DNA of 64,000 nucleotides from Bacteroidales bacterium (GCA_017559135.1 JAFYSZ010000017.1:10140-74139), one strand, 5' to 3'; numbered from the stretch's first letter, positions 31,187 through 47,821 are shown. Notes: a model not told the origin generated them from the sequence alone. A program made the numbers and translations.

Positions 31187-31197
31187 TCTTACAACAA

Positions 31198-32223: not shown

Positions 32224-32226
32224 TTC

Positions 32227-34065
32227 TTATTCTCCTAAAATTTGATTAAACACTTCTTTTAATTCACTTACTTCAAAAGGTAGGCCTTGTACTTTATTAT
32301 ATTGATGGAACATCATTCCTTGGAAGTTCATTCTCAAATAATTTACAAATTGTCCCATATTCAATTCACAAACCACAACCTTTTTATATCTCTTCAACAT
32401 TTCTTCTGTGTTCTTTGGAAGAGGCATTATGTAGTTAAATTGAGTAAATGCAATGCTTTTTCCTTCTGCTTGTAATTCTTGAACAGCACAACGCAAAGCT
32501 CCTTCTGTTCCTCCCCAACCAACAACTAATAAATCTGCTGATTCTGCTCCTTCTACTTCTTGGTTAGGAATACGATTTGCTACTCTTTCAACTTTTTCTT
32601 TTCTATATTTAACCATTTGTTCGTGGTTAGCACTGTCGGTTGAAACACTTCCTTTTCCAGAAAGTTTTTCCAAACCTCCAATTCTATGACGCAATCCGTC
32701 CATTCCAGGAACTGCCCATTGTCTTACAAGAGTTTCTGGGTCTCTGTTGTAAGGTGCGTAATTAGGATCGTTAGGTGTTGCAAAAGGTGGGTTGATTTTT
32801 GGAAGATCTGCCATCTTTGGAATTCTGAAAAGTTGAGAACCGTTTCCTAAATATCCATCTGTTAAAAGTATTGTTGGAGTCATCGTTTCCAAAGCTAAAC
32901 GTGCTGCTTCAAATGCCCAATAGAAACAATTTGCTGATGAAGATGCTGCAACTACTATACAAGGTGCTTCTCCATTTCTTCCAAATAATGCTTGTGTAAG
33001 GTCAGATTGTTCTGTTTTTGTAGGCAATCCTGTTGATGGACCTCCTCTTTGAACATCTACAATCACAAGTGGCAATTCTGTCATAACGGCTAATCCAATT
33101 GCTTCGCTCTTTAAAGACAATCCTGGGCCAGAAGTTGAAGTACAAGCCATTGCTCCTGCGAATGAAGCTCCGATTGCAGAACAAATACCTGCGATTTCGT
33201 CTTCTGCTTGGAATACTCTTGCTCCTAATGATTTGTGTTTTGCTAATTCTATCAAAATATCAGTTGCAGGAGTAATAGGATAAGAACCTAAGAATAAAGG
33301 AAGTCCTGCTTTTTCTGCTGCTGCAAGCAATCCCCATGCAGTTGCGATGTTTCCTGTAATGTTTCTGTATTTTCCTTTTGGCATTACAGCTTGCTCAACT
33401 ATCATTTGGCTTTCTAAAATGTCTGTGTTTTCACAGAAATTGAAGCCTGCTCTAACTACTGCTTTGTTTGCTTGAACAAGTTCAGGCTTTTTAGCAAATT
33501 TCTTTTCCAAATATGAATCGGTATGCTCTAATCCTTTTCCAAATATAAAGAAAATCATACCTAAGGCGAACATATTTCTACATTTTAATGCTGATTTTCT
33601 ATCTGCAAAAATGTCTTTTACTGTTTCTATTGTGAAACTTGTGATAGGGGCTTTAATTAATCTGTAATTTGAAAGCGAATCATCTTCAAGCGGATTAGAA
33701 GAATAACCTGCTTTTTCTATTGCTTCGTCTTCAAAAGTATCAGCATCAACAATTATAATACCTCCTATCTTAGCCCATTTCAAATTAGCCTTTAACGAAG
33801 CAGGGTTCATTGCTACTAATACGTCAGCTTTATCGCCTGAACTATAAATCTTCTTTCCGATATGTACTTGGAAACCTGATACACCTGCCACTGTATTGTG
33901 TGGAGCTCTGATTTCTGCTGGATAATCTGGGAATGTCGCAATGTCATTACCGTCCAAAGCAGAAGTATCTGAGAAAAGTGTACCTGTAAGTTGCATTCCA
34001 TCGCCGGAATCTCCGACAAATTTGATTACAACGTCTTCTCTTTTAATAACTTCTTTTGCTGTCAT
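32227..34065 (-). CDS. korA: 2-oxoglutarate:ferredoxin oxidoreductase, alpha subunit
   Basis: 612 aa with fused gamma-like N-terminal domain (GDSGDGMQ..) and alpha core (..GSYPITPATDI.., ..QAEDEIAG..). Confidence 0.9.
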   Translation of the reverse strand: MTAKEVIKREDVVIKFVGDSGDGMQLTGTLFSDTSALDGNDIATFPDYPAEIRAPHNTVAGVSGFQVHIGKKIYSSGDKADVLVAMNPASLKANLKWAKIGGIIIVDADTFEDEAIEKAGYSSNPLEDDSLSNYRLIKAPITSFTIETVKDIFADRKSALKCRNMFALGMIFFIFGKGLEHTDSYLEKKFAKKPELVQANKAVVRAGFNFCENTDILESQMIVEQAVMPKGKYRNITGNIATAWGLLAAAEKAGLPLFLGSYPITPATDILIELAKHKSLGARVFQAEDEIAGICSAIGASFAGAMACTSTSGPGLSLKSEAIGLAVMTELPLVIVDVQRGGPSTGLPTKTEQSDLTQALFGRNGEAPCIVVAASSSANCFYWAFEAARLALETMTPTILLTDGYLGNGSQLFRIPKMADLPKINPPFATPNDPNYAPYNRDPETLVRQWAVPGMDGLRHRIGGLEKLSGKGSVSTDSANHEQMVKYRKEKVERVANRIPNQEVEGAESADLLVVGWGGTEGALRCAVQELQAEGKSIAFTQFNYIMPLPKNTEEMLKRYKKVVVCELNMGQFVNYLRMNFQGMMFHQYNKVQGLPFEVSELKEVFNQILGE

Positions 34066-34223
34066 TACTTTGAGTTTTATATTATTTTTTATTTTTACGC
34101 TAAATAATCTGCAAATTTAGTAAGTTTATTCCATTTGAAGAAAAAAAAACACGCTTTTATTCGGTTATTCTACGTATTTATAGATAACTTTGCACTCGAA
34201 TTTAAGAATAAAATTAGAAATTG

Positions 34224-35213
34224 ATGAATAATAATACCTTTGGAAAGAGTTTTCGTTTGACAACTTTCGGAGAAAGTCATAGCACTTGCCTTGGTGGAAT
34301 TATAGAAGGCTTTCCTGCTAATCTGAAAATAGATTACCCTCTGATTAAAAGTGAATTAGAAAAAAGAAAATCAACATCTCCATTCTCTACTCCAAGGATT
34401 GAAGAAGATAAAGTTGTTTTTATTTCAGGAATTGAAAACAATATTTCCTTAGGTACACCGATTGCATTTTTGATAGAAAATAAAAATGTGAAAAAACAAG
34501 ACTATGAAAATCTAAAAACTCTTTTTCGTCCTTCGCATGCCGATTACACATATTTTTGTAAGTACGGCATAAATGCGAGTTCAGGAGGAGGAAGATCATC
34601 TGCAAGAGAAACTGTTTGCAGAGTTGTTGGAGGAAGTTTGGCTAAACAATTTCTTTCTCTATATCAAATAAATATTGAATCGGAAATAACACAAATAGGA
34701 CAATTTGACTACATTGCACAACGCAATCAGGCAGAAGAAGCACTAAAACAAGCAAAAGAAAATGGCGATAGTTTAGGAGGAGTAATAAAATGTATAATTC
34801 ACAACGTGCCAAAAGGACTTGGAGAGCCAATCTTTGACAAATTTTCAGCAACTCTTGCACAAGCAATGATAAGCATTCCCGCAGCAAAAAGCTTTGAAAT
34901 AGGAGACGGATTAGAATCTTGCAAACGTTTAGGCAGTGAAGATATAGACCATTGGAATCAAGACTTCACAACAAAAACCAATCATAGCGGAGGAGTGCAA
35001 GGAGGAATAACAAACGGAATGGACGTTGTTTTCAGCGTAGGATTTAAACCTATTGCATCAATTCGCACAATTCGAGCAATAAATCCACAAGGAGAAATCA
35101 CCGAAATAGAAAATAATGGCAGACATGACTGTTGCAATCTTTTCAGAGCAAGAGTTGTAGTAGAATCAATGGCAGCCCTTACAATAGCAGACTTTATTAA
35201 ACGAGCAAAATAA
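34224..35213 (+). CDS. aroC: chorismate synthase
   Basis: ..FGKSFRLTTFGESHS..LGGIIEGFPA.., ..RPSHADYTY.. and ..GGGRSSARET.. signatures. A TAacTTTG box lies about 40 nt upstream. Confidence 0.9.
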   Translation: MNNNTFGKSFRLTTFGESHSTCLGGIIEGFPANLKIDYPLIKSELEKRKSTSPFSTPRIEEDKVVFISGIENNISLGTPIAFLIENKNVKKQDYENLKTLFRPSHADYTYFCKYGINASSGGGRSSARETVCRVVGGSLAKQFLSLYQINIESEITQIGQFDYIAQRNQAEEALKQAKENGDSLGGVIKCIIHNVPKGLGEPIFDKFSATLAQAMISIPAAKSFEIGDGLESCKRLGSEDIDHWNQDFTTKTNHSGGVQGGITNGMDVVFSVGFKPIASIRTIRAINPQGEITEIENNGRHDCCNLFRARVVVESMAALTIADFIKRAK

Positions 35214-35223
35214 AAGAATAGAA

Positions 35224-35973
35224 ATGAATATGAAAATAAGCAGAAAAATTTTCTTTGTTTTATTTATTTTTTTAGCCGTTTCGTGCAAAGAAAACAAAGA
35301 ACTAAAAAAAGATTTCTTTACTTTATCGGGAGTAGTCTCCAATTCAACAGAACAATACTTGGTTTTAAGCGAAGTAGGTAAAAGCGGATTTACTCAAAAC
35401 GATACAATACCTATTGATGAAAAAGGAAATTTTTCAAAAAGCATAAAAATGCAAGAACCGACCCTTTACAGCTTATCTTATGGCAAAGAGTACATTATTA
35501 TATGTCCTGCAATAGAAGAAGAAATAAAAATAAAAGCTGTTGCAAATAACTTTTCAGGAACTTATATGGTAGAAGGCTCAAAAGAATCTGAACTTTTGAA
35601 GAAATTAAACAAAGAAAACTATAATGTACGCTTATCCTTAAAAAGTATGAGTGAAGAATTAAAGAAAACAGATGTTGAAAAATTAGACTCTGTACGTGCA
35701 AGCATGTTAGAAAAATACATCTCAACAAAACAATATCAAGAAAAAATAACCAAAGACTTTATAAATGAAAACTTAGGTTCGCTTACAACACTCATAGCAC
35801 TTCATCGTACTTTTGATGGAATCCCTTTATTTGATTTTCGTCAAGACTTAGAAATTCATAAACGCGTTCTTAAAGCCTTAGAGCAAACCTTCCCAAACAA
35901 TCAACACACATTAACGCTCAAAAACTTTATTGCAGAAAAAGAAAAAGCACAAAAGGAAAATGGAATTAAGTAG
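35224..35973 (+). CDS. hypothetical lipoprotein (DUF4369-like N-terminal region)
   Basis: Lipobox LAVSC. The N-terminal ..FTLSGVVSNSTEQYLVLSEV.. resembles the DUF4369 beta-sandwich seen in Bacteroidota. No thioredoxin CxxC. Confidence 0.5.
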   Translation: MNMKISRKIFFVLFIFLAVSCKENKELKKDFFTLSGVVSNSTEQYLVLSEVGKSGFTQNDTIPIDEKGNFSKSIKMQEPTLYSLSYGKEYIIICPAIEEEIKIKAVANNFSGTYMVEGSKESELLKKLNKENYNVRLSLKSMSEELKKTDVEKLDSVRASMLEKYISTKQYQEKITKDFINENLGSLTTLIALHRTFDGIPLFDFRQDLEIHKRVLKALEQTFPNNQHTLTLKNFIAEKEKAQKENGIK

Positions 35974-36709
35974 AAAAAAAATATATTTCGCCTCAGACTT
36001 TCACTTAGGTAATAGTACGAGAAAAAACAATCTAAGAAAAGAAAAATTAGTTGTGCGATGGCTTAATGCTATTTCAAAAGATGCAGAAGAAATCTACCTT
36101 TTAGGAGATGTATTTGACTTTTGGTTTGAATACAAAAACGTTGTTCCCAAAGGATTTGTGCGATTTCTTGGGACTCTTGCTCATTTAGCAGATTCAGGAA
36201 TAAGAATCCATCTTTTTTGTGGCAATCACGATTTATGGATAAGAGATTATTTTCAAGAAGAATTAGGAATAATTGTTCACAAACAAAATGAAATCCTTAC
36301 CCTTAAAGGTAAAACATTTATGCTTGGACACGGAGATGGATTAGATCCAAAAGATAAAAAATACAAATTTATAAACACAATATTTAAAAACAAATTTTGC
36401 ATATCTGCTTTTGCAAGTCTTCACCCCCGTTGGGCGATTGCCATAGCACAAAAGTGGAGTAAAAGTTCACGTGCCTCACATTCCGAAACCGACAAAATAG
36501 ACTTAGAAGAAAAAGAACCTATTTATAAATTTTGTCTCAAAACAATAGAAACACAAAAAATAGATTACTTTGTTTTTGGCCATCGACATTTGGTTTGTAG
36601 CAAGAAAATAAAAGACAAAACTTACTATATGAATCTTGGCTATTGGAACATATACGGACACTATGCAGTTTGGGACGGAAGAAAACTTATAATTAAAAAA
36701 TTTGATTAA
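35960..36709 (+). CDS. lpxH: UDP-2,3-diacylglucosamine diphosphatase (LpxH-type metallophosphoesterase)
   Basis: Calcineurin-like motifs in order: SDFHLG, GDVFDFW, GNHDLW, GHGD, GHRH. The start was set at the ATG at 35960 (MELSRKKIYF..). Confidence 0.8.
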   Translation: MELSRKKIYFASDFHLGNSTRKNNLRKEKLVVRWLNAISKDAEEIYLLGDVFDFWFEYKNVVPKGFVRFLGTLAHLADSGIRIHLFCGNHDLWIRDYFQEELGIIVHKQNEILTLKGKTFMLGHGDGLDPKDKKYKFINTIFKNKFCISAFASLHPRWAIAIAQKWSKSSRASHSETDKIDLEEKEPIYKFCLKTIETQKIDYFVFGHRHLVCSKKIKDKTYYMNLGYWNIYGHYAVWDGRKLIIKKFD

Positions 36710-36781
36710 GAAAAAACTTTTTTTACCTTTGCACACAGATTTTTCTGTAAAAGATTATTCATAATTAAATAAAATATAGAG

Positions 36782-37885
36782 ATGAAAAACACACCATTTA
36801 CACAAAAACACATCGAATTAGGAGCCAAAATGGCTGAATTCGCTGGTTACAATATGCCAATTTCATACGAAGGATTGGTAGTAGAACACAATAATGTAAG
36901 AAATGCAGTTGGAGTATTTGACGTTTCTCACATGGGAGAGTTTAGAGCAAAAGGCCCAAAGGCATTTGAATTTGTTCAACGTTGCACTTCAAACGATATA
37001 GCAACATTATTTGACGGTAAAGTATTATATACAGTTCTTCCAAACGGCAAAGGCGGAATCGTAGACGATATGTTGGTTTACCAAGTCTCAAAAGAAGAAT
37101 ATTTTATGGTGCCAAACGCAGCAAATATTGACAAAGATTGGGCTTGGATGAGCAAAATAGCAGAAGAAATGGGCTTAGTATTAGGTCAAGACTTCACAAA
37201 CGAAAGCGAAAGCTATGGACAATTAGCAGTACAAGGTCCTTTGGCATTAAAAGCAATGCAAAAACTTACAGAAACTCCTATTGAAGATATGGAATACTAC
37301 ACATTCAAATTCTTGACTTTTGCAGGAATTGAAAACGTTCTTTTATCTACAACAGGATATACAGGAGCAGGTGGATGCGAAATCTACTTTGACAAAAAAT
37401 ATGCAGACAAAATTTGGGACGCAGTCTTTGAAGCAGGAAAAGAATTCGGAATAATGCCTGCTGGATTAGGATGTAGAGATACACTTCGTTTAGAAATGGG
37501 ATTCTGTTTATACGGACACGAAATTGATGACGAAACATCTCCAATTGAAGCAGGATTAAATTGGCTTACAAAGTTTGTTGACGGAAACGATTTCATAGAC
37601 AGAGAACGTCTTGAACAACAAAAAGCAAACGGAGTTAGCAAAAAATTAGTAGGATTCCAAATGATAGACAAAGGAATCCCACGTCAAGGATACGAAGTGT
37701 GCGATGCAGAAGGCAATGTAATAGGAAAAGTTTGTTCAGGAACACAATCACCTTCTTGCGGTGTAGCAATCGGAACAGCACACGTAGCAACAGCATTCAG
37801 CAAAAAAGACACAGAAATCTTTATCAAAGTAAGAGAAAAACTATTAAAAGCAATAGTTGTAAAAATGCCTTTCTACAAAGGATAA
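36782..37885 (+). CDS. gcvT: glycine cleavage system aminomethyltransferase T
   Basis: ..FAGYNMPISYEG..HNNVRNAVGVFDVSHMGEF.. and ..GYTGAGGCEIY.. A TAccTTTG box lies upstream. Confidence 0.95.
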   Translation: MKNTPFTQKHIELGAKMAEFAGYNMPISYEGLVVEHNNVRNAVGVFDVSHMGEFRAKGPKAFEFVQRCTSNDIATLFDGKVLYTVLPNGKGGIVDDMLVYQVSKEEYFMVPNAANIDKDWAWMSKIAEEMGLVLGQDFTNESESYGQLAVQGPLALKAMQKLTETPIEDMEYYTFKFLTFAGIENVLLSTTGYTGAGGCEIYFDKKYADKIWDAVFEAGKEFGIMPAGLGCRDTLRLEMGFCLYGHEIDDETSPIEAGLNWLTKFVDGNDFIDRERLEQQKANGVSKKLVGFQMIDKGIPRQGYEVCDAEGNVIGKVCSGTQSPSCGVAIGTAHVATAFSKKDTEIFIKVREKLLKAIVVKMPFYKG

Positions 37886-37901
37886 TTCAAAGATAAAACA
37901 C

Positions 37902-37939
37902 AAGCCCACAAGACAAAAAAAAGTTTTGTGGGCTTTTTT
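37902..37939 (+). terminator. rho-independent terminator after gcvT
   Basis: Stem aagcccacaa/ttgtgggctt followed by TTTT. Confidence 0.75.
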
Positions 37940-37957
37940 ACAAAACAAAATCAAGAA

Positions 37958-38968
37958 ATGAAATACAAAACTCCTACATCAAAACGCACAAAACAACTTG
38001 CAATGATACTAAGTCTAATACCTAATATAGTATTAGCACAACAAGGAGTAATTGTATTCCACAATTGTGAAAATTTTTTCTATCCTACCAAAGACAGCAT
38101 AGCACTTGACGATGATTTTACCGCAGAAGGCAAAAAACGATGGAACTTTTCGCGATACAATACTAAGAAAAACCTACTAGCCAAGACCTATATAGCAGCA
38201 GGAAAAAGCAATATGCCCGCAATAATAGGCTTGTGCGAGATAGAAAACGACAAAGTGTTATACGATTTATGCAAAGACTCTCCCTTACGCAAAGGAAAAT
38301 ACAAATATATTCACTATCCATCAGAAGACATCAGAGGAATAGACGTAGCATTACTATACAACGAACAATTTACACCTCTTTCGCATAAAAAAATAGTAAT
38401 TCCCACAGAAGAAAACGAAGAAAAAACACGAGACGTTCTTTATGTACAAGGAATAATGCAAGATATAAAACTAAATATCTATGTAATTCACGCCCCCTCA
38501 CGCCGAGAACACAACATAAAAAAGGCTTTGCGCACAAAAATGTTTGCGATAGTCAATAGTCATATTGAAGAACTAAGACAAAAAGGAGAAGAAAACTTTA
38601 TCATAATGGGCGATATGAACGACAACCCTTGGGATTCTTCAATCAAAGACGGTTTCAAAACCATTGCACACCGCAATAACCCCGATCCATTTCTTGTAAA
38701 CCTAATGCGAAACAACAAAAACAAACGAGGCTCTTACGTTTACAGCGGAGATTATTGCAATTTCGATCAATTTATAGTATCAAAACCCCTCTTGAATCAC
38801 TTAGAAACAGAAGGAAAAGAAGAAGAAATGATTTTCCGCCCCGATTTCCTAATAGATAAAGACAAAAGCAATCGCTTAATTCAGCCACTTTCCACCTACA
38901 AAGGAATGCACTACCAAGGCGGAGCAAGCGATCATTTCCCAATAAGACTGTTTTTAAAAGAAAAATAA
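37958..38968 (+). CDS. endonuclease/exonuclease/phosphatase (EEP) family protein
   Basis: Signal-like N-terminus. EEP motifs ..IGLCEIEN.., ..VIHAPSR.., ..GDMNDNP.. and the terminal ..SDHFPI. The ATG at 37958 is preferred because the GTG at 37928 lies inside the gcvT terminator stem. Confidence 0.8.
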   Translation: MKYKTPTSKRTKQLAMILSLIPNIVLAQQGVIVFHNCENFFYPTKDSIALDDDFTAEGKKRWNFSRYNTKKNLLAKTYIAAGKSNMPAIIGLCEIENDKVLYDLCKDSPLRKGKYKYIHYPSEDIRGIDVALLYNEQFTPLSHKKIVIPTEENEEKTRDVLYVQGIMQDIKLNIYVIHAPSRREHNIKKALRTKMFAIVNSHIEELRQKGEENFIIMGDMNDNPWDSSIKDGFKTIAHRNNPDPFLVNLMRNNKNKRGSYVYSGDYCNFDQFIVSKPLLNHLETEGKEEEMIFRPDFLIDKDKSNRLIQPLSTYKGMHYQGGASDHFPIRLFLKEK

Positions 38969-39004
38969 AAAATTCCCCCCTTGACTTAACGCCAAATGCG
39001 TGCG

Positions 39005-39059
39005 ATATCACGCCGAGATACGACAAATATCATCAAGAGATACACTCCGTATCACGCTG
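39005..39059. repeat. about 2.5 degenerate 22-bp tandem repeats (ATATCAyNNNGAGATAC), locally GC-richer than the surroundings
   Basis: Read directly: atatcacgccgagatac (39005-39021), atatcatcaagagatac (39027-39043), and tatcacgc again at 39050-39057. Confidence 0.6.
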
Positions 39060-39112
39060 TTAAATTTTTTCAAAAGCAAGGTTGATTTCCAAAAGACTTT
39101 ATTCGCAAGATT

Positions 39113-39179: not shown

Positions 39180-39416
39180 ATGAACATAGATAAAGAAAAA
39201 TTAGAGAGTATTGAAGCAAAACTCTATGCAATATTAGATGAAATCAAAGAATACAAAAAAGCATTTGAAAAGAAAATAGACGTAACCAAGTTTAAATGCC
39301 TTAAAAACTTGGAGGGACATATAAAACTTGTCTGGTCCGTAGCATTTAGTCCCGATGGTATAAAAATAATCAGCGGTTCAGATGATGAAACCATTCAGAT
39401 ATGGGGAGAGGAATAG
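39180..39416 (+). CDS. 78-aa protein: predicted coiled-coil N-terminus plus a single WD40 repeat
   Basis: The C-terminal LEGHIKLVWSVAFSPDGIKIISGSDDETIQIWG is a textbook single WD40 blade (GH...SPDG...SGSxDxTIxIW). It has its own promoter and terminator. Confidence 0.6.
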   Translation: MNIDKEKLESIEAKLYAILDEIKEYKKAFEKKIDVTKFKCLKNLEGHIKLVWSVAFSPDGIKIISGSDDETIQIWGEE

Positions 39417-39439: not shown

Positions 39440-39498
39440 AAAACGCTCGTGAGTCTTAGTTTTCTTTTGACAAGCGAGCGTTTTTCGTTTTTTTTCTC
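39440..39498 (+). terminator. rho-independent-type terminator after the WD40 mini-gene
   Basis: Stem aaaacgctcg/cgagcgtttt with a long (about 25 nt) loop, followed by TTTTTCGTTTTTTTT. Confidence 0.6.
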
Positions 39499-39564
39499 TT
39501 AATTTTTAAAAATTATTTTTGAAATATATCTCTGTTAATAAGTAATAATAATTAAATTTGCATT

Positions 39565-40608
39565 ATGAAAGATTTGTATAATTGTAATAGTGGAGATTTT
39601 ATTGCTGATATAAAACAGATAATAGAGCAATCAAGAAAGCAAGCGTACGTTTCTGTTAATGCAATTATGATTCGATTGTATTGGTTGCTTGGGAAACGTA
39701 TTGTAGAAGAAGAACAAGGCGGAGATTCTCGTGCAGAATATGGAAAATTCTTACTTACGAATCTTGCAAATGAACTAACAGCGATTTATGGCAATGCTTA
39801 CAGTGTTCGTCGCTTACGAGAATATAGACAATTCTATGTGTATTTCAGTGATTTAGAAATGTGGCAGTCGCGAGTGCCGAATTTAACTTGGACACATTAT
39901 AGAGAGCTTATAACCGTTCACGAAAAAGAAGCACGTAATTGGTACATGCAAGAAGCATCAAACGAAATGTGGAGTGTAAGAACGTTGCATCGCAATATTT
40001 CTTCGCAATATTATTATCGTTTATTGCAAGCGCAATCAAAGGAAGTGGTGATTGATGAAATGAAACAAATCACTGCACCTTTGCAAACAGACAAATTAGA
40101 ATTTATTAAAAACCCTGTGGTTGCAGAATTTTTGGGATTGGTAAATAATCCTCAATTTTCCGAGACTGAATTGGAGAATGCTATTATTACTCATTTACAA
40201 AAATTCATTATGGAGTTAGGTAAAGGATACGCATTCGTTGCTCGCCAACAGCATATTCGTACTGATATGGGAGATTTCTTTATTGATCTTGTTTTTTATA
40301 ACTATATCTTAAAATGTTTCTTGCTTATTGATTTAAAAACCGAACAAATAAGTCATCAAGATGTAGGACAAATGGATATGTACATTAGAATGTATGATGA
40401 ACTTAAAAGAACAGAGGGAGATAATGCAACAATAGGACTTATTCTCTGCTCTAAAACAAGTGAAGATATGGCAAGATATTCTATGTTAAAAGACAACGAA
40501 AGATTATTTCAAGCAAAATATCTTACTTTTTTGCCAACAAAAGAAGAATTGACGAATGAAATTGAACAACAAAAGATAATATTCCAATTACAGCAAGAGA
40601 ATAAATAA
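39565..40608 (+). CDS. YhcG/DUF1016 family PD-(D/E)XK nuclease-domain protein
   Basis: N-terminal YhcG-like helical domain (..NAIMIRLYWLLGKRIVEEEQGG..RAEYGKFLL..L) and a C-terminal PD-(D/E)XK core (..GDFFIDLVFYNYILKCFLLIDLKTEQ..). Confidence 0.8.
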   Translation: MKDLYNCNSGDFIADIKQIIEQSRKQAYVSVNAIMIRLYWLLGKRIVEEEQGGDSRAEYGKFLLTNLANELTAIYGNAYSVRRLREYRQFYVYFSDLEMWQSRVPNLTWTHYRELITVHEKEARNWYMQEASNEMWSVRTLHRNISSQYYYRLLQAQSKEVVIDEMKQITAPLQTDKLEFIKNPVVAEFLGLVNNPQFSETELENAIITHLQKFIMELGKGYAFVARQQHIRTDMGDFFIDLVFYNYILKCFLLIDLKTEQISHQDVGQMDMYIRMYDELKRTEGDNATIGLILCSKTSEDMARYSMLKDNERLFQAKYLTFLPTKEELTNEIEQQKIIFQLQQENK

Positions 40609-40661
40609 CAATAATCGTGCTAAAATCTTGTTAAATTAAGACTTCGTTTTTTTCCCTTGAA

Positions 40662-40727
40662 TTTTGTGTAGCGATTACTTTTCTTTATCTTTGCAAAATG
40701 GATTTAAAGGAAAGAAAAAAGGAACTT
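40662..40727 (+). repeat. left copy of a perfect 66-bp direct repeat (identical to 44038-44103)
   Basis: Base-by-base comparison: ttttgtgtagcgattacttttctttatctttgcaaaatggatttaaaggaaagaaaaaaggaactt. The flanking bases differ on both sides. Confidence 0.95.
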
Positions 40728-40760
40728 TCTTTTAAAATTAGTTTAATGGTTTTAAGTTAG
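40698..40760 (+). pseudogene. duplicated 5' stub of the 5-formyl-THF cyclo-ligase gene (MDLKERKKEL plus 10 unrelated codons, then a stop)
   Basis: The first 10 codons are identical to the intact gene at 44074. The frame leaves the repeat at 40728 and terminates at 40758-40760. Confidence 0.8.
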
Positions 40761-40825
40761 TGCTATAATTGATAATGAAAATGGGGTAACGGATAAAGCA
40801 TCAAAATTAATTACTAAGTCAAAAT

Positions 40826-42112
40826 ATGGAAATAAATACTAAACATACACTTGTTATAGGAGATAGCAGAAATTTATCTTTGATACCAGATAAATCTGTT
40901 CATCTTATTATTACATCACCGCCCTATTGGCAACTAAAGGATTATGGTAATGATAATCAGATAGGGTTTCATGATAGTTATGAGGGTTATATAAATAATC
41001 TTAATATGGTTTGGTCTGAGTGTAATCGCATATTACATGATGGTTGCCGTTTGTGCATTAATATTGGTGATCAATTTGCTCGCTCCGTATATTATGGTCG
41101 TTATAAGGTTATTCCTATCAGAACAGAAATAATTCGTTTTTGTGAAACATTAGGTATGGATTATATGGGAGCTATTATCTGGCAAAAACAGACAACAATG
41201 AATACGACTGGAGGAGGTGCTGTTATGGGGAGCTTTCCGTATCCAAGAAATGGTATTCTGAAAATAGATTATGAGTTTATTCTCATTTTTAAGAAACAAG
41301 GTAAAGCACCTGTTCCTTCATTAGAACAAAAGAAATCTTCCGAAATGACAAAAGAAGAGTGGAATACATATTTCTCTTCTCATTGGACTTTTGGAGGTGC
41401 AAAACAAGATGGTCATATTGCTGTATTCCCGGAAGAACTACCTTATCGTTTGATTAAGATGTTTTCTTTTGCTGGAGAAACTGTTTTTGATCCTTTTATG
41501 GGCAGTGGAACAACCGCATTAGCAGCACGAAACCTTCAGAGGAATTCCTTTGGATATGAAATAAATCCTGATTTCGTGGATTACTATAAGCAAAAAGTTG
41601 ATAATGCTCATCTGTTTAACAATTCAACGTGTCTGTATAAAGTAGATTCTTCTATGGTTAACAAAGAAGAAAAACTAAATACATTACCTTATGTGTTTAA
41701 TGACCCACATAAAATGGAAAGTAAAATTGATATAAAGAAACTCCAATTTGGTTCAAAAATAGATAAGGATAGCAAGGAACGTGAAGAGTATTATTTTGTA
41801 AAGAGTGTTCTTTCCCCAAATACTGTTATACTTAGTAATGGGTTAACAATTAAGTTGATTGGAATAAAAGAGAAACCTTCTGTAAATGGAAGTGCTACAA
41901 GATTTCTTATAGAGAAAACAAAGGGTAGAAAGGTTTTTCTAAAATATGATTCAGTGAAGTATGATTCTGACAACACGTTGTTGTGCTATTTATATTTAGA
42001 TAATAAGACATTTATAAATGCACATATGCTAAAGAATGGTTTGGCAGAGGTAGATATGGCTGCCGATTTTAAATATAAGTCAAAATTTATAACCTACAGT
42101 TATGGCAAATAA
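40826..42112 (+). CDS. beta-class N4/N6 DNA methyltransferase (SPPY motif, likely m4C) fused to a C-terminal catalytically degenerate SNase/thermonuclease-like domain
   Basis: Motif IV ITSPPYW near the N-terminus precedes motif I VFDPFMGSGTTALAA, which is the beta-class order. The C-terminal ~110 aa align by eye to staphylococcal nuclease (..LLCYLYLDNKTFINAHMLKNGLAEV vs ..[24 protein letters not shown]). The Ca-binding and catalytic residues (DGDT, D40/E43, R35, R87) are replaced. Confidence 0.8.
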   Translation: MEINTKHTLVIGDSRNLSLIPDKSVHLIITSPPYWQLKDYGNDNQIGFHDSYEGYINNLNMVWSECNRILHDGCRLCINIGDQFARSVYYGRYKVIPIRTEIIRFCETLGMDYMGAIIWQKQTTMNTTGGGAVMGSFPYPRNGILKIDYEFILIFKKQGKAPVPSLEQKKSSEMTKEEWNTYFSSHWTFGGAKQDGHIAVFPEELPYRLIKMFSFAGETVFDPFMGSGTTALAARNLQRNSFGYEINPDFVDYYKQKVDNAHLFNNSTCLYKVDSSMVNKEEKLNTLPYVFNDPHKMESKIDIKKLQFGSKIDKDSKEREEYYFVKSVLSPNTVILSNGLTIKLIGIKEKPSVNGSATRFLIEKTKGRKVFLKYDSVKYDSDNTLLCYLYLDNKTFINAHMLKNGLAEVDMAADFKYKSKFITYSYGK

Positions 42113-42431
42113 TATACAAGAAGTGCAACGCTTGCTTGGATACATTCCTTATGGAAAGTCCAATGCAATACATGCAGAAGATATAGCATTACAGTTAGGA
42201 TATTCGACTGGTGGAAATCAAGTTGAAACGCGTCAGTTAATACGTTACGCTATTCAACAGGGCAATATTATTCTAAGTACACCTGCGAATGGGTACTGGC
42301 GTTCTAATAACAAACAGGAAGTGATAGATTATATAAATGCATTATTAAGTAGGGCCGATGATATACTAACAAGAAGTAACGAAATTAAGAATGCATGGAA
42401 TAGTGTAAATCCTAATAATTTAATACCATAA
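42102..42431 (+). CDS. small (109 aa) winged-helix-like protein between M and R genes; possible controller/DNA-binding component
   Basis: Overlaps the M gene by 11 nt and ends 2 nt before the next ATG. The pattern ..AEDIALQLGYSTGGNQVETRQLIRYAIQQGNIILS..GYW.. looks like helix-turn-helix plus wing. This is inference only. Confidence 0.45.
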   Translation: MANNIQEVQRLLGYIPYGKSNAIHAEDIALQLGYSTGGNQVETRQLIRYAIQQGNIILSTPANGYWRSNNKQEVIDYINALLSRADDILTRSNEIKNAWNSVNPNNLIP

Positions 42432-42433
42432 TA

Positions 42434-43114
42434 ATGAAAAAACATTCGCTTGATTTTGGGAAGAAAGAACGCGTATTAAATTACGCTTGTCAAACATATC
42501 AGTTATCTCGCCCTAATAAAGTTGGAGCTGTTATGGCATTGATTAGAGAGTGTCAACCGAATTCTTTTGAAGAATGGGAGCAGTGGTATTTCTTAAATGC
42601 TCATACATCAGGGAAGAAACCTACCAAAATAACCAATGAAAGTTTACGAGAATTGGGTGAACGTTTGTATGTCAAGATTACGGAGATAGTTATTCCTGAG
42701 TGGGAAAGTGCTTTTAGAGAACTGACGGAGCAAGATTGCATCGATTATATCTATAATCTTACAATCAATAGAACTTACGATGGATATTTGCGTGAAAAAT
42801 CTGTTATAAACGATGGATTAGCCAAACTCTTCCCAGATGTGGTATTTGAAGAAAGTGATCCAGAATTAGATCATGCTGGTGATATCGATTATGTAGCTAA
42901 AATTGGGAATGCATCTATTGGAATCCAGATTAAACCAATTACTGCAAGCGCTAATTTTGGCAGCTATTCATTAACTGAAAGAATGAAAGCAAGCTTTGAA
43001 TCTTTCAAAGAACAATATGGTGGAAATGTCTTTGTCGTTTTTAGTTTAGATGGAGAAATTGCAAACAAAGAAGTGATTGAACAAATGAAATTAGAAATTG
43101 AACGTTTATCATAA
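42434..43114 (+). CDS. putative type II restriction endonuclease (226 aa), PD-(D/E)XK-like
   Basis: Position directly downstream of a methyltransferase in the same operon. Candidate nuclease core ..DPELDHAGDIDYVAKIGNASIGIQIKP.. (D..D-x13-QxK). My unverified recollection is that proteins like this are annotated MjaI-family (CTAG). Confidence 0.5.
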   Translation: MKKHSLDFGKKERVLNYACQTYQLSRPNKVGAVMALIRECQPNSFEEWEQWYFLNAHTSGKKPTKITNESLRELGERLYVKITEIVIPEWESAFRELTEQDCIDYIYNLTINRTYDGYLREKSVINDGLAKLFPDVVFEESDPELDHAGDIDYVAKIGNASIGIQIKPITASANFGSYSLTERMKASFESFKEQYGGNVFVVFSLDGEIANKEVIEQMKLEIERLS

Positions 43115-43226
43115 ATACATGTAATTATGATTCTACAATAGGAATAAAAGTTTAAAACTCTTTGTTTGATGTTATACAATATGGCATAGAATTTAAATTT
43201 AGTAGTATATTTATATTCTTGGAAAA

Positions 43227-43670
43227 ATGAAAGATTTTGATATTAAATTTGTAATACTAATAGCTTTTTTATTAGGGCTATTATCGGGAATCTGTATTAC
43301 TTGTTTGTGTAAAAATAAAATTTCTTTTAGGAAAATGCTAGGTAATATTGCATCTTTTCTACAAAATAACTGGTATATTGTAATTTTAATTACATCTATA
43401 AGTTATGTTGTTATTAAATATCCCGATTGTGCAGATTTTACTTTATTTTCAAACTTTAATGGTGACAATCTTGTTTTTGTGTTATGTTTGATAATACTAA
43501 TACTCCCCTTATTTGATAAATTTGAATTGTTTGGAGTTAATTTAATATTACGAAGGCAAAATGAAAAGTCTGATGAGGCAGCGGAAGAAGCTATGAATAA
43601 TGAAATTCCTAAAAAAGATGAATTTTTAAAAGAATTAACTTCTAAAAGGAAAGGAGAAAACAATGAGTAA
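43227..43670 (+). CDS. hypothetical membrane protein (147 aa, about 3 TM helices, charged C-terminal tail)
   Basis: Hydrophobic stretches FVILIAFLLGLLSGICITCL, WYIVILITSISYVVI and LVFVLCLIILILPLF, and an acidic/basic tail. No known motif. Confidence 0.55.
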   Translation: MKDFDIKFVILIAFLLGLLSGICITCLCKNKISFRKMLGNIASFLQNNWYIVILITSISYVVIKYPDCADFTLFSNFNGDNLVFVLCLIILILPLFDKFELFGVNLILRRQNEKSDEAAEEAMNNEIPKKDEFLKELTSKRKGENNE

Positions 43671-43911
43671 TGTTGGAATAAAAAAAGTTATTGAGGTGGG
43701 ATTAGAGTTGATGCAATCATCTTTAACAGAACAACAATATAATATATGGCTTGAATATTCAAAGTCAATGCTTGAATTGGTGTCCAAGAATAAATATATA
43801 ATGATGAATTATATGAAAGTTATTTTAAAGGCGTCAGATCCTAATTTAGAACCATATCAACGCATTGGTATGTGTTTAAGGTATTTAATAAGTATTCAAT
43901 CTATATTGTAA
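43663..43911 (+). CDS. hypothetical small helical protein (82 aa)
   Basis: The start overlaps the preceding stop (ATGAGTAA, 8-nt overlap), indicating translational coupling. No known motif. A weak hairpin lies at 43939-43955 downstream. Confidence 0.5.
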   Translation: MSNVGIKKVIEVGLELMQSSLTEQQYNIWLEYSKSMLELVSKNKYIMMNYMKVILKASDPNLEPYQRIGMCLRYLISIQSIL

Positions 43912-44037
43912 GGGGAAATAGCCAAATTTTTTATCGATAAGGATATTTATTCCTTTGTATTATAATGGCAAGAAGTATTGTGAGATAAACGATATTTAAT
44001 AATTATACTTTAATAGTAGCTTGTTTTTTTCGTTTTG

Positions 44038-44103
44038 TTTTGTGTAGCGATTACTTTTCTTTATCTTTGCAAAATGGATTTAAAGGAAAGAAAAAAGGAA
44101 CTT
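44038..44103 (+). repeat. right copy of the perfect 66-bp direct repeat; contains the functional promoter (TTTG 44039-44042, TATCTTTG 44062-44069) and the start of the cyclo-ligase gene
   Basis: Identical to 40662-40727 (offset 3376 bp). Confidence 0.95.
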
Positions 44104-44637
44104 AGAAAGCTGATTCGTGAGAGAAAGAAATTGCTTTCTATGGATAATAAGAATTTACAATCGGAAAGGATTTTCTCTTCGGTTGTAAATTCTTCTGTTT
44201 ATAAGAATGCTAATACCATTCTTTTGTATTGGTCAATGGACGATGAGGTTCCGACTCATGATTTCATACTTGCAAACTATGAAACTAAGACAATTCTTTT
44301 GCCTTGTGTGGTTGGAGATGATTTAGTGCTTAGAAAATTCTCTGGAATGCACACAATGAAGGCGGGAGAGCAGTTTGGAATACTTGAACCTACGGGAGAA
44401 ATCTTTTCAGACTATGAAAAAATAGATTTAATGATAATTCCGGGAGTTGCTTTCGATAGAGAAAAAAGACGCATCGGTAGAGGTCGTGGATTTTATGATA
44501 GATTGCTTTCGGTAAATCAAAACAAGAAAATGGGAATTTGTTTCAATTGTCAATTGGTTGAGCAGGTTCCTGTTGAGGAATTCGATGTTAAAATGGACTA
44601 TGTTATAAGTCCTGATGAGTTTGTGGGAGATGAGTAA
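44074..44637 (+). CDS. 5-formyltetrahydrofolate cyclo-ligase
   Basis: ..LLYWSMDDEVPT.., ..GILEP.. and ..IDLMIIPGVAFDREKRRIGRGRGFYDRLL.. signatures. The ATG at 44074 is used because the TTG at 44035 would overlap the promoter boxes. Confidence 0.85.
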   Translation: MDLKERKKELRKLIRERKKLLSMDNKNLQSERIFSSVVNSSVYKNANTILLYWSMDDEVPTHDFILANYETKTILLPCVVGDDLVLRKFSGMHTMKAGEQFGILEPTGEIFSDYEKIDLMIIPGVAFDREKRRIGRGRGFYDRLLSVNQNKKMGICFNCQLVEQVPVEEFDVKMDYVISPDEFVGDE

Positions 44638-46255
44638 GAGAAAACTAATATTGATTTCCTGCCTTTCGGGAGTGCTTCTCAGCCTTGCATGGTTGGATTT
44701 GCTTTTCGCACCGCTTATGCTTGTGGCTTTTGTTCCTATGCTTTGGGTTGAGCAATATATTTCAAAAAACAATGAAGACAAACGCTTTTCTGCTTGTGCT
44801 GGTTTTGCATACTCTTATTTGCCTTTCTTGATTTGGAATGCTACTACAATTTTTTGGGTATCTTTTTCAACGCCTGCTGCTTTGGTTTTGCCTTTCTTTC
44901 AAGCCGCTTTAATGTCTCTTGCTTTCCAACTTTTTCATTGGGCAAAGCGTGTGTTTGGAGTAGAAAAGAAAATCAATTATGTGTTTTTCATTATTTTCTT
45001 TCTTGCTTTTGAGTTTGTAGAATTGCATTGGGATTTCAATTTTCCTTGGTTAAACTTAGGTAATAGTTTTGCAAAATATCCTGCTTTGGTGCAATGGTAC
45101 GAGTTTACAGGCGTTGCGGGTGGTAGTCTTTGGATATTGATTTCAAATGTCTTTGTTTTATTTTTTTTAAACGGCGTTTTAGAAAAATATTTCAGCCAAA
45201 AAATAAATTATTTCTTAGGAATAATTCTCGCTTTGCCTATAATAATTTCTTTAACAATTTTCTTTACTTTCAAAGAAGAGAAAACGCAAGGTTCAGACGT
45301 TGTTGTAGTGCAACCAAATCTTGATCCGTATGAAGAACAATATAGTTTGTCGCCACAAGATGTTTGTTTGATAATAGAAAACCTTGCTTTGCAAAAGGCA
45401 GATAAGGAAACAGATTTTGTTCTCTGTCCTGAGAGTTGCATACAAGAATATGCGTGGGAAGAATACTTAGAAGAAACTCCGAGTATTGAGTATTTAAGAA
45501 ATCTTTCTAATCGTTTTCCACGCTTGGAGTTTATTGCAGGAATGTCTTCTCGCAAACAAATTGATGAAAGTCAAAAAACTATTGCTTCAAGACTGCACAA
45601 GAGATATGGTTTTTGGTATGAAAACTACAATACTGCAATAAAAATTGATAGAGATACGCTTTCTCCTCAAAGTCAAATAAGACATAAATCTGTTCTTACG
45701 CCTGCTGTGGAGAAAATGCCTTTGCAAAAATATCTTGGATTTATGGAAAACTTTATTCTTGACTTAGGTGGCACGGTTGGAAGTTTGGGAACGGATAAGG
45801 ATTTCAAGGTATTTTCTTCTGAAAACAAGCCTAAGACTGCTACTGCAATATGTTATGAAAGTGTTGATGGGCAATATGTGGCAAATCTTGTGAAATCGGG
45901 AGCAGAACTCTTGTTTATAATCACTAATGACGGCTGGTGGAAAAATACTCCTGGACATCGTCAGCACGCATCTTTTGCTTCTTTGCGTGCAATTGAGAAT
46001 AGACGCTATATTGCAAGGAGTGCCAATACGGGAATTTCTTCTTTTGTTTCTCCAAAAGGGAATGTGTTGCAAAAGACAAAGTATTGGGAAGAAGATGTAA
46101 TAAAACAAACTTTATATCCTCAGACAAAAATTACTTTCTACACCAAACACGGAGATTATATTTACAGAACGTCTTCGTTTTTGGCAGTTTTGAGTATTTT
46201 GTTGGCGTTTGTATATGGAGTTTTAAGAAAAAAGAAAAATTTAACAATAAATTAA
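44630..46255 (+). CDS. lnt: apolipoprotein N-acyltransferase
   Basis: N-terminal multi-TM domain and a C-terminal CN-hydrolase domain with catalytic Cys in ..TATAICYESVDG.. The alternative ATG at 44615 is possible. The ATG at 44630 gives an ATGAGTAA overlap with the upstream stop. Confidence 0.85.
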   Translation: MSKRKLILISCLSGVLLSLAWLDLLFAPLMLVAFVPMLWVEQYISKNNEDKRFSACAGFAYSYLPFLIWNATTIFWVSFSTPAALVLPFFQAALMSLAFQLFHWAKRVFGVEKKINYVFFIIFFLAFEFVELHWDFNFPWLNLGNSFAKYPALVQWYEFTGVAGGSLWILISNVFVLFFLNGVLEKYFSQKINYFLGIILALPIIISLTIFFTFKEEKTQGSDVVVVQPNLDPYEEQYSLSPQDVCLIIENLALQKADKETDFVLCPESCIQEYAWEEYLEETPSIEYLRNLSNRFPRLEFIAGMSSRKQIDESQKTIASRLHKRYGFWYENYNTAIKIDRDTLSPQSQIRHKSVLTPAVEKMPLQKYLGFMENFILDLGGTVGSLGTDKDFKVFSSENKPKTATAICYESVDGQYVANLVKSGAELLFIITNDGWWKNTPGHRQHASFASLRAIENRRYIARSANTGISSFVSPKGNVLQKTKYWEEDVIKQTLYPQTKITFYTKHGDYIYRTSSFLAVLSILLAFVYGVLRKKKNLTIN

Positions 46256-46258
46256 AAT

Positions 46259-47821
46259 ATGTTTAAGAAAGTACCACACACTTATGTGATAATATTCTTT
46301 TTGATTGCTTTGGCTGCGGTTGCTACTTGGGTGGTTCCTGCTGGCGAATTTGAGCGTCAAGAAGTGGTTACAGAATCTGGAAAAATTGTTAATCAGATTG
46401 TGCCAGGCTCTTTTGAGAGTCAAGAACAGAATCCTCAGACTTGGGAGATTATGTCTGCTTTCTTCAAAGGGTTTCAACGTGCTCCGGGGATTATTGCTTT
46501 CCTTTTGATTTTGGGAGGGGCGTTTTGGATTCTTAATGAAACGAAAGCGATTGATATGGGAGTGCAAACCTTCCTTAAAAAGTCGTCTTCTTTGGAGAGA
46601 TACGCATTGTTTAGGAAGATAGGCGTGAATAATCTTATCATTGTGGTGATAATGGTTATGTTCTCTTTGTTTGGTGCGATTTTTGGAATGAGTGAGGAAA
46701 CGATTGCTTTCGTTGCGATATTCGTTCCCTTAGCAATATCTATGGGATATGACTCTATTACGGGGGTGTGTCTTTGTTTCCTTGCAGCAGGTCTTGGTTT
46801 TGCTGGGTGTATTCTTAACCCTTTCACTTTGGGAATTGCACAAGATATTGCTGGAATTAAGATGTTTTCGGGTATTGAATACAGATTGATTGTTTGGTTT
46901 GTGATTACGTTTGTCGGAATCGCATTTGTGTTGTACTATGCAAACAAAGTGAAAAAGAATCCTAAGAAATCAATTATGTATGAGGAGGATGCTTATTGGA
47001 GAGAACATCAAGCATCGGCTAATGACATAGTTGCAATTAAGGCTTCAAAGACTTGTTGGATTGCTTATTTGGCTGTGCTTCTTATTCAAGTGATTTTCTG
47101 TGTGCAAACTCAGAGCCTACCTCTTATTATAACAACTGCTCTTTATGCTATCATAGGTTATTTTGGTATAAAGAAGTCTATGCAAATGTTTTCCTTAGCA
47201 ATATTGATTTTTACTATTGTTTACTTGGTTATAGGTGTAATGATTTTTGAATGGGGCTTTGAACAAATTGCTGCATTGTTCTTCTTTATGGCAATAATTA
47301 CGGGAATGGCTCTTGGAAAATCGGCAAGTGATATTGCTAAACTTTTCATTGCGGGTGCTAAGGACATGCTTTCGGCTGCCTTAGTCGTAGGTTTGGCTTC
47401 TGGAATTATTATAATATTGGAAGATGGTAAAATAATCGATACGTTTTTATCGGGTTTGGCAAGTGCGATTTCGGGCAGTGGACAAGTTGGTGCTTTGAGT
47501 ATTATGTATGCTTTCCAATCTGTGTTGAACGCAATCATTACCTCAGGCACAGCAAAGGCAGCAATGCTTATGCCGATGTTTGCAGAAATTGCAAATATGA
47601 CAGGAATGTCCTTGCAAGCCGCTGTTACTGCATTTCATATCGGAGACGGATTCACAAATCTTATTACTCCAACCTCAGGAGTGTTGATTGCAGTTTTAGG
47701 ACTTGCCAAAATACCATACGCAAAATGGGTGAAATTCTCTTGGAAGTTTATCTTGGCAATGGTCGTTCTTGGTTGGTTGCTTTTAATTCCAACAGTGGTT
47801 ATGCAATTACCTGGATTTTAA
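46259..47821 (+). CDS. YfcC/DcuC-like anaerobic C4-dicarboxylate/basic amino acid carrier family membrane protein
   Basis: 520 aa, more than 10 TM helices. The N-terminal ..VPHTYVIIFFLIALAAVATWVVPAGEFER.. is characteristic of the YfcC family. Confidence 0.75.
   Translation: MFKKVPHTYVIIFFLIALAAVATWVVPAGEFERQEVVTESGKIVNQIVPGSFESQEQNPQTWEIMSAFFKGFQRAPGIIAFLLILGGAFWILNETKAIDMGVQTFLKKSSSLERYALFRKIGVNNLIIVVIMVMFSLFGAIFGMSEETIAFVAIFVPLAISMGYDSITGVCLCFLAAGLGFAGCILNPFTLGIAQDIAGIKMFSGIEYRLIVWFVITFVGIAFVLYYANKVKKNPKKSIMYEEDAYWREHQASANDIVAIKASKTCWIAYLAVLLIQVIFCVQTQSLPLIITTALYAIIGYFGIKKSMQMFSLAILIFTIVYLVIGVMIFEWGFEQIAALFFFMAIITGMALGKSASDIAKLFIAGAKDMLSAALVVGLASGIIIILEDGKIIDTFLSGLASAISGSGQVGALSIMYAFQSVLNAIITSGTAKAAMLMPMFAEIANMTGMSLQAAVTAFHIGDGFTNLITPTSGVLIAVLGLAKIPYAKWVKFSWKFILAMVVLGWLLLIPTVVMQLPGF

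Follow-up and report, generated by a model that had tools for sequence, protein, structure and literature searches.

Directly upstream of the gene for 5-formyltetrahydrofolate cyclo-ligase, a genome from Candidatus Onthomorpha (uncultured gut Bacteroidales) carries a small islet that encodes a type II restriction-modification (R-M) system and is bracketed by two copies of the cyclo-ligase promoter and gene start. The islet lies in a 64,000-nucleotide stretch of DNA (GCA_017559135.1, JAFYSZ010000017.1:10140-74139), which we call the window and to which positions refer unless another locus is named; loci used for comparison are designated by L numbers. We consider it likely that the locus represents an R-M insertion with long target duplication, i.e., an islet moved by host recombination that sits in a defence hot spot upstream of cyclo-ligase-lnt.

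The Islet Is Bracketed by Two Copies of a Host Promoter and Gene Start

In agreement with an earlier note made from this sequence, base-by-base comparison within the window revealed that positions 40662-40727 and 44038-44103 form a direct repeat in which 66 of 66 nucleotides are identical. A search of the window allowing up to three mismatches returned these two copies only (shuffled sequences: 0 expected). A 29-mer from the repeat core is present a single time at every empty locus, and occupied loci have it twice. Over the 64 kb of the window and the empty loci, where the repeat has two copies and a single copy, respectively, we found no sign of a dispersed repeat.

The left copy begins with TTTG at 40663-40666, followed by 19 nt, TATCTTTG at 40686-40693, a 4-nt CAAA leader, and an ATG at 40698; its coding part comprises ten cyclo-ligase codons (MDLKERKKEL). 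The consensus of promoters recognized by the primary sigma factor of Bacteroidetes consists of TTTG near -33 and TAnnTTTG at -7 (PMC7366714), and the arrangement TTTG-N19-TATCTTTG fits it. The earlier description of the repeat as promoter, 4-nt leader, and ten codons thus agrees with the published motif (PMC7366714). Between yhcG and the cyclo-ligase gene, complete promoter motifs on the + strand are confined to the two repeat copies. The 20-codon stub open reading frame (ORF) reported to start in the left copy is present, as is the methyltransferase gene, whose ATG (40826) sits 98 nt past the left repeat. The host gene was left intact, as had been proposed, with the right copy continuing into the whole cyclo-ligase gene. 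The features of the islet and its borders are as follows:

40643-40661, + strand: imperfect leftward extension of the left copy, T-tail 'allele B' (…TTCCCTTGAA); matches the native upstream sequence of L007, L010, and L011
40662-40727, + strand: left 66-bp copy with a putative promoter that would now drive the R-M operon; identity and promoter consensus
40698-40760, + strand: stub ORF of 20 codons, 10 from the host and 10 from the island, then a stop; sequence reading
40756-40842, + strand: remnant, the last 28 codons of an HTH_3 controller (C) gene (…VSAIIDNENGVTDKASKLITKSKYGNKY, then the stop); aligns with the intact C genes of L190, L191, and L094
40826-42112, + strand: type II DNA methyltransferase (M), N6_N4_Mtase with a C-terminal SNase-like domain; PF01555 (4e-44), PF00565, full-length PADLOC MTase_II PDLC03259 (1.7e-169)
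42102-42431, + strand: p109, a small protein of 109 aa between M and R; phrog_2113 match (function unknown)
42434-43114, + strand: MjaI-family type II restriction endonuclease (R); PF09568 (2.9e-27), PADLOC REase_II PDLC03450 (1.8e-95)
43227-43670, + strand: p147, a predicted multi-pass membrane protein of 147 aa, apparently an older islet resident; no family match
43663-43911, + strand: p82, a small protein of 82 aa paired with p147; no family match
43912-44023, + strand: non-coding islet tail; 75-82% conserved across island variants with different accessory genes
44024-44037, + strand: imperfect leftward extension of the right copy, T-tail 'allele A' (…TTTTCGTTTTG); identical to the native upstream sequence of L009, L005, L006, and L008
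44038-44103, + strand: right 66-bp copy, the working promoter and 5' end of the cyclo-ligase gene; 66/66 identity
44074-44637, + strand: intact 5-formyltetrahydrofolate cyclo-ligase gene, overlapping the downstream lnt; PF01812 (2e-37)

The two copies had been said to diverge immediately on both sides. This applies to the right edge, where identity ends at once, but not to the left edge, where another 14 nt are similar and contain five mismatches, giving a total of 80 nt at 94% (75/80). The native upstream sequence of related genomes comes in two natural alleles, and these account for the five mismatched bases; positions 40643-40727 are 98.8% identical to L010. Compared with L007, the window shows 99.3% nucleotide identity from 39491 across the yhcG cassette that adjoins the islet on the left; this identity ends about 12 nt inside the 66-mer, and the right flank is 86% identical. 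Because the L007 identity ends there and the alleles of the left and right extensions differ, the left edge of the perfect repeat is best explained as a recombination breakpoint. Two histories fit equally well: either the yhcG cassette with its allele-B flank was imported beside a pre-existing island, or an allele-A circle entered an allele-B chromosome via a crossover inside the 66 bp. The duplication length of 66 bp given before needs correction, since relatives carry perfect repeats of 88-89 bp; the original duplication would accordingly have spanned about 88-89 bp, including the terminator T-tail, the promoter, the leader, and ten codons.

The Same Site Is Empty or Occupied in Related Genomes

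Scanning with the downstream Lnt protein placed the organism in Candidatus Onthomorpha and led to nine congeneric loci. L007 has exactly the empty site that had been predicted, namely yhcG (99.4% amino acid identity), one copy of the repeat, and the cyclo-ligase gene. In L005, L006, and L008-L011, a single-copy cyclo-ligase promoter follows the terminator hairpin and other genes, and neither yhcG nor the island is present. The single 66-mer of L009-L011 is identical to both window copies at 66 of 66 positions. L007, L009, L010, and L011, each with one copy, are congeneric but not conspecific with the window. Cyclo-ligase orthologues with 79-97% identity lie 3' of the single-copy site in the relatives.

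Three other assemblies (L090, L091, and L182) carry island variants at the same site. L182 contains the same five genes within a perfect 88-bp repeat that abuts the native hairpin. L090 and L091 have a perfect 89-bp repeat, M and R together with two different small genes, and, as left neighbour, a gene resembling those for outer membrane proteins instead of yhcG. The window and these three loci share the island-side junction, in which …CTT is followed by TCTTTTAAAATTAG, although their left neighbours differ. In L090, L091, and L182, both repeat copies bear the species' own allele. In its right flank, L182 shares 95.5-97.3% identity with the empty-site loci L005, L006, L008, and L013, and L090 shares 98.5-98.9% with empty-site genomes. 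These near-conspecific pairs belong to a sister clade of the window's species, and they show that occupied and empty states coexist at roughly the species level. The earlier note had listed three kinds of observation that would speak against an insertion, concerning the relatives' junctions, the copy number of the repeat, and the lack of empty sites; none of them was made.

The Islet Encodes an R-M System and No Recombinase

The repeat copies are separated by 3310 bp with five genes, all on the + strand. Searches of the five products against Pfam, NCBIfam, PADLOC, and PHROGs matched no recombinase and no transposase. ARAGORN detected no tRNA or tmRNA between 30 and 52 kb of the window, and a tRNA/tmRNA attachment site was rejected for this stretch. 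Both results bear out the initial description of five same-strand genes lacking integrase, transposase, and tRNA. A recombinase hidden among the three unknown ORFs was also considered and dropped, as the four hidden Markov model (HMM) libraries and a PDB sequence search gave no match to a recombinase. The lone recombinase-like signal was a sub-threshold XerC hit (14.7 bits versus a cutoff of 335) to the N-terminal domain of the neighbouring YhcG. Within ±8 kb, the neighbours are housekeeping genes (gcvT, aroC, lnt, dcuC, sufCD, NAD kinase, dxr).

Furuta et al. (2010) recognized R-M insertions with long target duplication by the presence of R and M genes in an insert of less than 20 kb, a flanking repeat of more than 30 bp, the lack of mobility genes, and an unoccupied locus with one copy that can be aligned to either repeat (PMC2853133). 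All of these properties were found here, in support of the insertion mode that the earlier note had suggested. The islet encodes R and M (PF01555, PF09568, PADLOC MTase_II/REase_II), measures 3310 bp, and is flanked by a repeat that is identical at 66/66 positions, or 75/80 when extended, and perfect over 88-89 bp in relatives. No integrase, transposase, phage gene, or tRNA was detected in or beside the insert using the four HMM libraries and ARAGORN. Empty sites are provided by L007 and L009-L011 and, for the near-conspecific pairs of L182 and L090, by L005, L006, L008, and L013.

The methyltransferase has many relatives at 85-100% identity. Its C-terminal SNase/thermonuclease-like domain is kept throughout the family, which carries the NCBI label 'thermonuclease family protein.' The small protein p109 showed no match in Pfam, NCBIfam, or PADLOC and occurs in only part of the R-M family, being missing from L090 and L094. 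A single-sequence AlphaFold2 model of p109, of poor quality (mean predicted local distance difference test score, pLDDT, 52), has the topology H-H-H-E-E-long-H, which faintly hints that it may be a winged-helix regulator.

MjaI recognizes CTAG, and the islet system is probably specific for the same sequence, judging from family membership. CTAG is the most avoided 4-bp palindrome in the window, with 9 sites observed versus 129 expected (observed/expected, O/E, 0.07). This is consistent with, though not proof of, long exposure of the lineage to such an enzyme. Other short palindromes are strongly avoided in the window as well (GCGC, O/E 0.21; GATC, 0.23; GGCC, 0.24; TCGA, 0.33), which suggests past exposure to several restriction systems.

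A Broken Controller Gene Marks the Left Junction

In most relatives, an HTH_3 controller gene overlaps the start of M, and the corresponding ORF of L190 is an HTH_3 protein. An intact upstream C gene, which would be expected of a type II R-M system with controller, is absent from the window. Instead, the remnant listed above overlaps the methyltransferase start by 17 nt, with stop codons lying upstream, and the 5' two-thirds of the C gene are gone from the islet together with its own promoter. No TAnnTTTG box was found in the leader at 40728-40825. Because the controller and its promoter have been lost and the leader lacks the motif, the duplicated host promoter is the only recognizable driver of M-p109-R, and it probably represents the only promoter of the R-M operon. 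The proposal that the left promoter copy drives the methyltransferase has thereby gained support at the sequence level, as the leader turned out to be a truncated controller remnant without a promoter motif of its own.

The hexamer GGAACT is common to host codons 8-10 and to the closest intact C genes. It could mark a microhomology junction; an alternative alignment that places the junction at TCTTTTAA is equally possible.

The Islet Is a Composite of a Mobile R-M Core and Older Genes

Comparison of the window with L182 uncovered sharp steps in nucleotide identity. Values are high for the leader (98%), M (99.4%), p109 (97.2%), R (97.4%), and the next intergenic region (100%), but drop to 87% for the left repeat copy, 74% for p147, 83% for p82, and 75% for the tail; cyclo-ligase, lnt, and dcuC show 82-87%. 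Relative to the counterparts in L182 and L092, p147 is 61% identical at the amino acid and 74% at the nucleotide level and p82 is 77% identical at the amino acid level, compared to 97-99% for the R-M core. These discontinuities suggest that the R-M core (40728 to about 43226) was recently exchanged between species, through two crossovers, the first of which fell within or at the edge of the left repeat and the second close to where p147 begins, and that p147 and p82 are old residents that have diverged with the host or faster. The five genes of the islet are thus not one unit.

The core alone, about 90% identical and extending from 40754/40793 to 43113/43124, is also present in unrelated contexts. 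It lies between purH and obg-side genes in L193 and beside a tyrosine integrase in L190, and is elsewhere combined with DUF4747, S49-type protease, or D12 methylase accessory genes. We also found the core in 80 gut-metagenome loci and 6 IMG/VR contigs. The earlier note had proposed a search for the 3310-bp unit in other contexts; the R-M core does occur in such contexts, and the same five genes were found at the same site in L182.

The accessory genes 3' of the R gene vary across contexts (L084, L085, L090, L092, L193). The sets comprise a membrane and a small protein, DUF4747 and a membrane protein, an S49-type protease and a small protein, a Lar-like zinc-ribbon and a membrane protein, or two large unknowns and a D12 methylase. 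The region after the R gene is a variable add-on module.

Long Repeats Flank Some Other Members of the R-M Family and Neighbouring Cassettes

Long flanking repeats were detected at 7 of about 68 R-M loci, representing four distinct contexts, compared to 0 of 141 pseudo-inserts, i.e., random 2.3-kb segments of Bacteroidota loci; a repeat was counted from 45 bp at an identity of at least 89%. Since no pseudo-insert had such a repeat, the repeats do not reflect background. In L124, a 73-bp repeat (6124-6196 and 9275-9347; 94.5% identity) flanks an R-M core with p109 in GC-rich DNA. It duplicates the 3' end of a gene for a 630-aa protein, the C-terminal tail of which was replaced by the insertion, and we regard this as an independent long-target-duplication event involving the same R-M family. 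In L084, another copy of the R-M core is surrounded at 5862-15116 by direct repeats that are nested and non-colinear, with lengths of 77 bp (94%), 135 bp (98%), and about 730 bp (87%; a pair of HisKA paralogues). We rejected the idea that flanking repeats are universal for this R-M family, as most of the 86 metagenomic and viral loci have none.

The islet shares its site with other cassettes. Two features to its left are important in this respect:

39442-39485, + strand: native terminator hairpin of the upstream WD40-repeat gene; single-copy in the window, and located just 5' of the cyclo-ligase promoter in L006 and L008-L011
39491-40661, + strand: yhcG cassette, which has a -7 box (TAAATTTG) of its own; not present in L005, L006, and L008-L011

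The hairpin marks the left edge of an intergenic hot-spot target of about 150 bp. In the relatives, an M16 peptidase gene is located 1.3-5 kb 5' of the cyclo-ligase gene, and the cargo of this interval changes from one genome to the next: lipoprotein genes, a variable WD40-repeat gene, AAA_21 with RloB, a SocA/Panacea gene, a nucleotidyltransferase (PDC-S09), an AbiLi-like ATPase with a DUF3226 protein, or YhcG (PDC-S02). Two of these non-R-M cassettes are bracketed by long repeats too. In L008, a 66-bp repeat (7538-7603 and 9359-9424; 97% identity), consisting of hairpin and T-tail, encloses the AbiLi-like AAA ATPase and DUF3226 genes, and in L182, a 47-bp repeat (6328-6374 and 6772-6818; 98% identity), consisting of the hairpin, encloses the PDC-S09 nucleotidyltransferase.

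The yhcG gene (39565-40608) encodes a DUF1016/YhcG nuclease of the PD-(D/E)XK type and is a candidate defence gene according to Pfam and PADLOC (PDC-S02). Its cassette (39491-40672) is 99.3% identical at the nucleotide level to L007 8253-9434, compared to 86% for the adjacent housekeeping flank, and the next-nearest YhcG relatives in the protein database reach 83%. The cassette thus looks like a separate insertion at the hot spot, made earlier or later than that of the islet, and like a single-gene cassette that was recently exchanged. A direct repeat flanking yhcG (39484-39506 and 40643-40665, 83%) was discarded as too short and too T-rich, with 11 nt matching exactly.

Proposed Origin and Movement of the Islet

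According to our model, a foreign C-M-(p109)-R unit, broken within its controller gene, would have been joined to codon 10 of the cyclo-ligase gene, with duplication of a target of about 88 bp that comprised the T-tail, promoter, leader, and ten codons. The right copy would keep the housekeeping gene intact, and the left copy would promote an R-M operon that lacks its own promoter and controller. Candidates for the first duplication are staggered breaks with fill-in, template switching, or a circle carrying a picked-up host segment. From then on, the repeats and the internal homology would serve as substrates for host homologous recombination, with no recombinase encoded by the islet. The whole unit could be lost through repeat-by-repeat recombination, which would release a circle, and it could be regained when this circle integrates in the Campbell manner or when flanking homology mediates an exchange. 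The trimming to 66 bp would be tied, via the left-edge breakpoint, to import of the yhcG cassette or integration of an allele-A donor.

Because the copies are species-specific but internally identical, and because of the hybrid alleles and sharp identity steps, host homologous recombination appears to be what now moves, replaces, and probably deletes the unit. Campbell-type integration, which the earlier note had offered as an alternative, is inseparable from de novo duplication as the origin, and we favour it for the present-day spread. It would produce the same topology with a reconstituted host gene and predicts hybrid B/A allele copies. On the other hand, 66-89 bp is short for RecA-dependent recombination, the host segment of the first circle would remain unexplained, and no circular form was observed.

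Several points weigh against an insertion followed by host-driven movement. The genes p147 and p82 and the tail are as diverged as the flanks, so that the islet frame may be ancient in the genus, and many of the 'empty' sites could be precise deletions rather than sites that were never occupied. No empty site was found for the window's own species, in which all public contigs with identical flanking proteins (4-5 of 4-5) carry the island, and the closest empty relatives are only 86-89% identical to the window flank. Most loci with this R-M core lack a flanking repeat. Promoter activity, enzyme activity, and specificity are predicted from motifs and family membership. In addition, microhomology at GGAACT, a possible first step of the duplication, depends on an ambiguous alignment.

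The first of these points would also be expected if no recent insertion had taken place and the frame were an old vertical one, formed once, perhaps by local tandem duplication. Today's polymorphism would then stem from repeat-mediated deletions and from allelic replacement of the core through ordinary flank homology, with the copies kept identical by gene conversion. The identical junctions across clades are compatible with this scenario, as is the finding that copies are identical within a genome and 87% identical between species, which calls for either conversion or re-integration. However, it is evident from the C-gene remnant that codon 10 was once fused to a foreign unit, the R-M core clearly moves horizontally, and the seven empty species-level relatives would require many independent precise losses. 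We therefore regard an old vertical frame as unlikely, and in any case it overlaps with, rather than excludes, the insertion we propose. The shared island-side left junction at the same site in at least three genome backgrounds could alternatively indicate a non-autonomous integrative element that is moved by a recombinase encoded elsewhere, with the 66-89-bp repeats representing attL and attR and the element supplying a replacement promoter and 5' end. Such recombination would leave the local allele in each repeat pair, as observed, and the same R-M core does lie beside a tyrosine integrase in L190. But neither the islet nor the surrounding ±8 kb encodes a recombinase, the element ends on its left in a broken gene and not in a defined att arm, and the recent exchange spans only 40728 to about 43226 instead of the whole element. 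Moreover, other cassettes in the 150-bp region duplicate other segments (47 and 66 bp) with other end points, and the R-M family is elsewhere flanked by unrelated 73- and 77-bp repeats. A recombinase acting in trans hence appears very unlikely to us.

The scaffold is metagenome-assembled and Logan unitigs break at the repeat (L002, L004, L181), which raises the question of a repeat-induced chimera. Such breaks are expected of a k=31 graph, and the same arrangement was obtained from independent samples and assemblers, also in k141 contigs, where the k-mers cover the whole repeat. As the occupied loci also have species-specific repeat alleles on both sides, an assembly artefact is hardly credible. 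Logan unitig ends were likewise discarded as evidence of circles or empty sites, because breaks 30 nt into the repeat are the k=31 behaviour for any repeat longer than k.

Relation to Known Insertion Modes

The islet resembles published R-M insertions (PMC2853133) in its short insert of 3.3 kb, in a repeat of 66-89 bp that far exceeds transposase-type duplications and consists of host sequence with one copy per empty locus, and in the overlap of the repeat with a host gene end, as in some of the published cases. Unlike in those cases, the host is an uncultured Bacteroidales, and the taxa listed there include no Bacteroidetes (PMC2853133). Here, a complete promoter and 5' coding end were duplicated, and the R-M unit has neither a controller nor a promoter of its own. 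Its insert is a composite in which the core is younger than the two accessory genes, and adjoining non-R-M cassettes are duplicated alike. Because these neighbouring cassettes have the same signature, the published suggestion that breakage by the restriction enzyme causes the duplication (PMC2853133) is weakened.

Two other systems invite comparison. The pan-genomes of Pseudomonas and Escherichia coli reportedly contain recombinase-free defence hot spots in the core genome that are exchanged by flanking homology. The site described here is similar in being a fixed intergenic position with differing defence genes per strain and no hallmarks of mobile elements, but its single cassettes are bracketed by long target duplications, which do not result from flank-mediated replacement. 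Integrons likewise stack small cassettes at a fixed site, and here too some cassettes are split by hairpin copies and a resident promoter would read into a promoter-less cassette. In contrast to integrons, there is no IntI, the duplicated segments differ between cassettes, and most cassettes have their own promoters. Inspection by eye, for which no formal attC model was used, revealed no attC R''/L''/L'/R' or GTTRRRY/RYYYAAC boxes in the inter-cassette hairpin (GC stem and T-tail).

A broader reading would be that long (47-89 bp) target duplication reflects a general, recombinase-independent stacking of small defence cassettes at terminator-proximal hot spots in Bacteroidales. It would cover the R-M unit, the AbiLi-like ATPase pair, the nucleotidyltransferase, and possibly YhcG. 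The mechanism could be microhomology-mediated template switching at the hairpin, or cycles of repeat-mediated excision and Campbell re-integration. If such stacking is general, which we put forward tentatively and consider rather doubtful, duplication may be selected for because it preserves the host gene and hands a promoter to the incoming genes.

Ever since the description of the pattern in 2000-2010, it has been asked how R-M and other defence genes get into chromosomes without a recombinase. The present locus offers a natural series, with empty sites, island variants, traceable repeat alleles, a broken controller at the junction, and non-R-M cassettes of the same kind. This series speaks against the restriction enzyme itself as the cause of the duplication and suggests a selective rationale, as the host gene is spared and a promoter donated. 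In the literature searched, we found no link of the pattern to Bacteroidetes, and the case extends it to gut Bacteroidales with concrete junctions. Features added to the known class are the apparent promoter capture after controller loss, the mixed ages of the islet's parts, and the presence of several long-duplication insertions in one hot spot.

Signs of Recombination in the Flanking Regions

The right flank of the islet (44104-47821) is a mosaic with respect to L005-L013. Lnt is closest to the L006/L008 clade (88-89% amino acid identity), and the L007/L009 clade has the nearest counterparts of the cyclo-ligase and DcuC (92-98%), which indicates inter-species recombination in the region.

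The distance from the M16 peptidase to the cyclo-ligase gene amounts to 12.9 kb in the window (28344-31190 and 31190-39100), where about 8 kb with housekeeping genes for POR, AroC, a metallophosphatase, GcvT, and an EEP nuclease lie between M16 and the hot spot. The displaced M16 gene suggests a rearrangement, one breakpoint of which would lie at the hot spot. Upstream of the hairpin, a 78-aa ORF with one WD40 repeat (39180-39416) represents the C-terminal end of the variable WD40-repeat lipoprotein, which has 544 aa in L007, 237 aa in L008, and 71 aa in L009; the window ORF was apparently shortened through recombination among the repeats.

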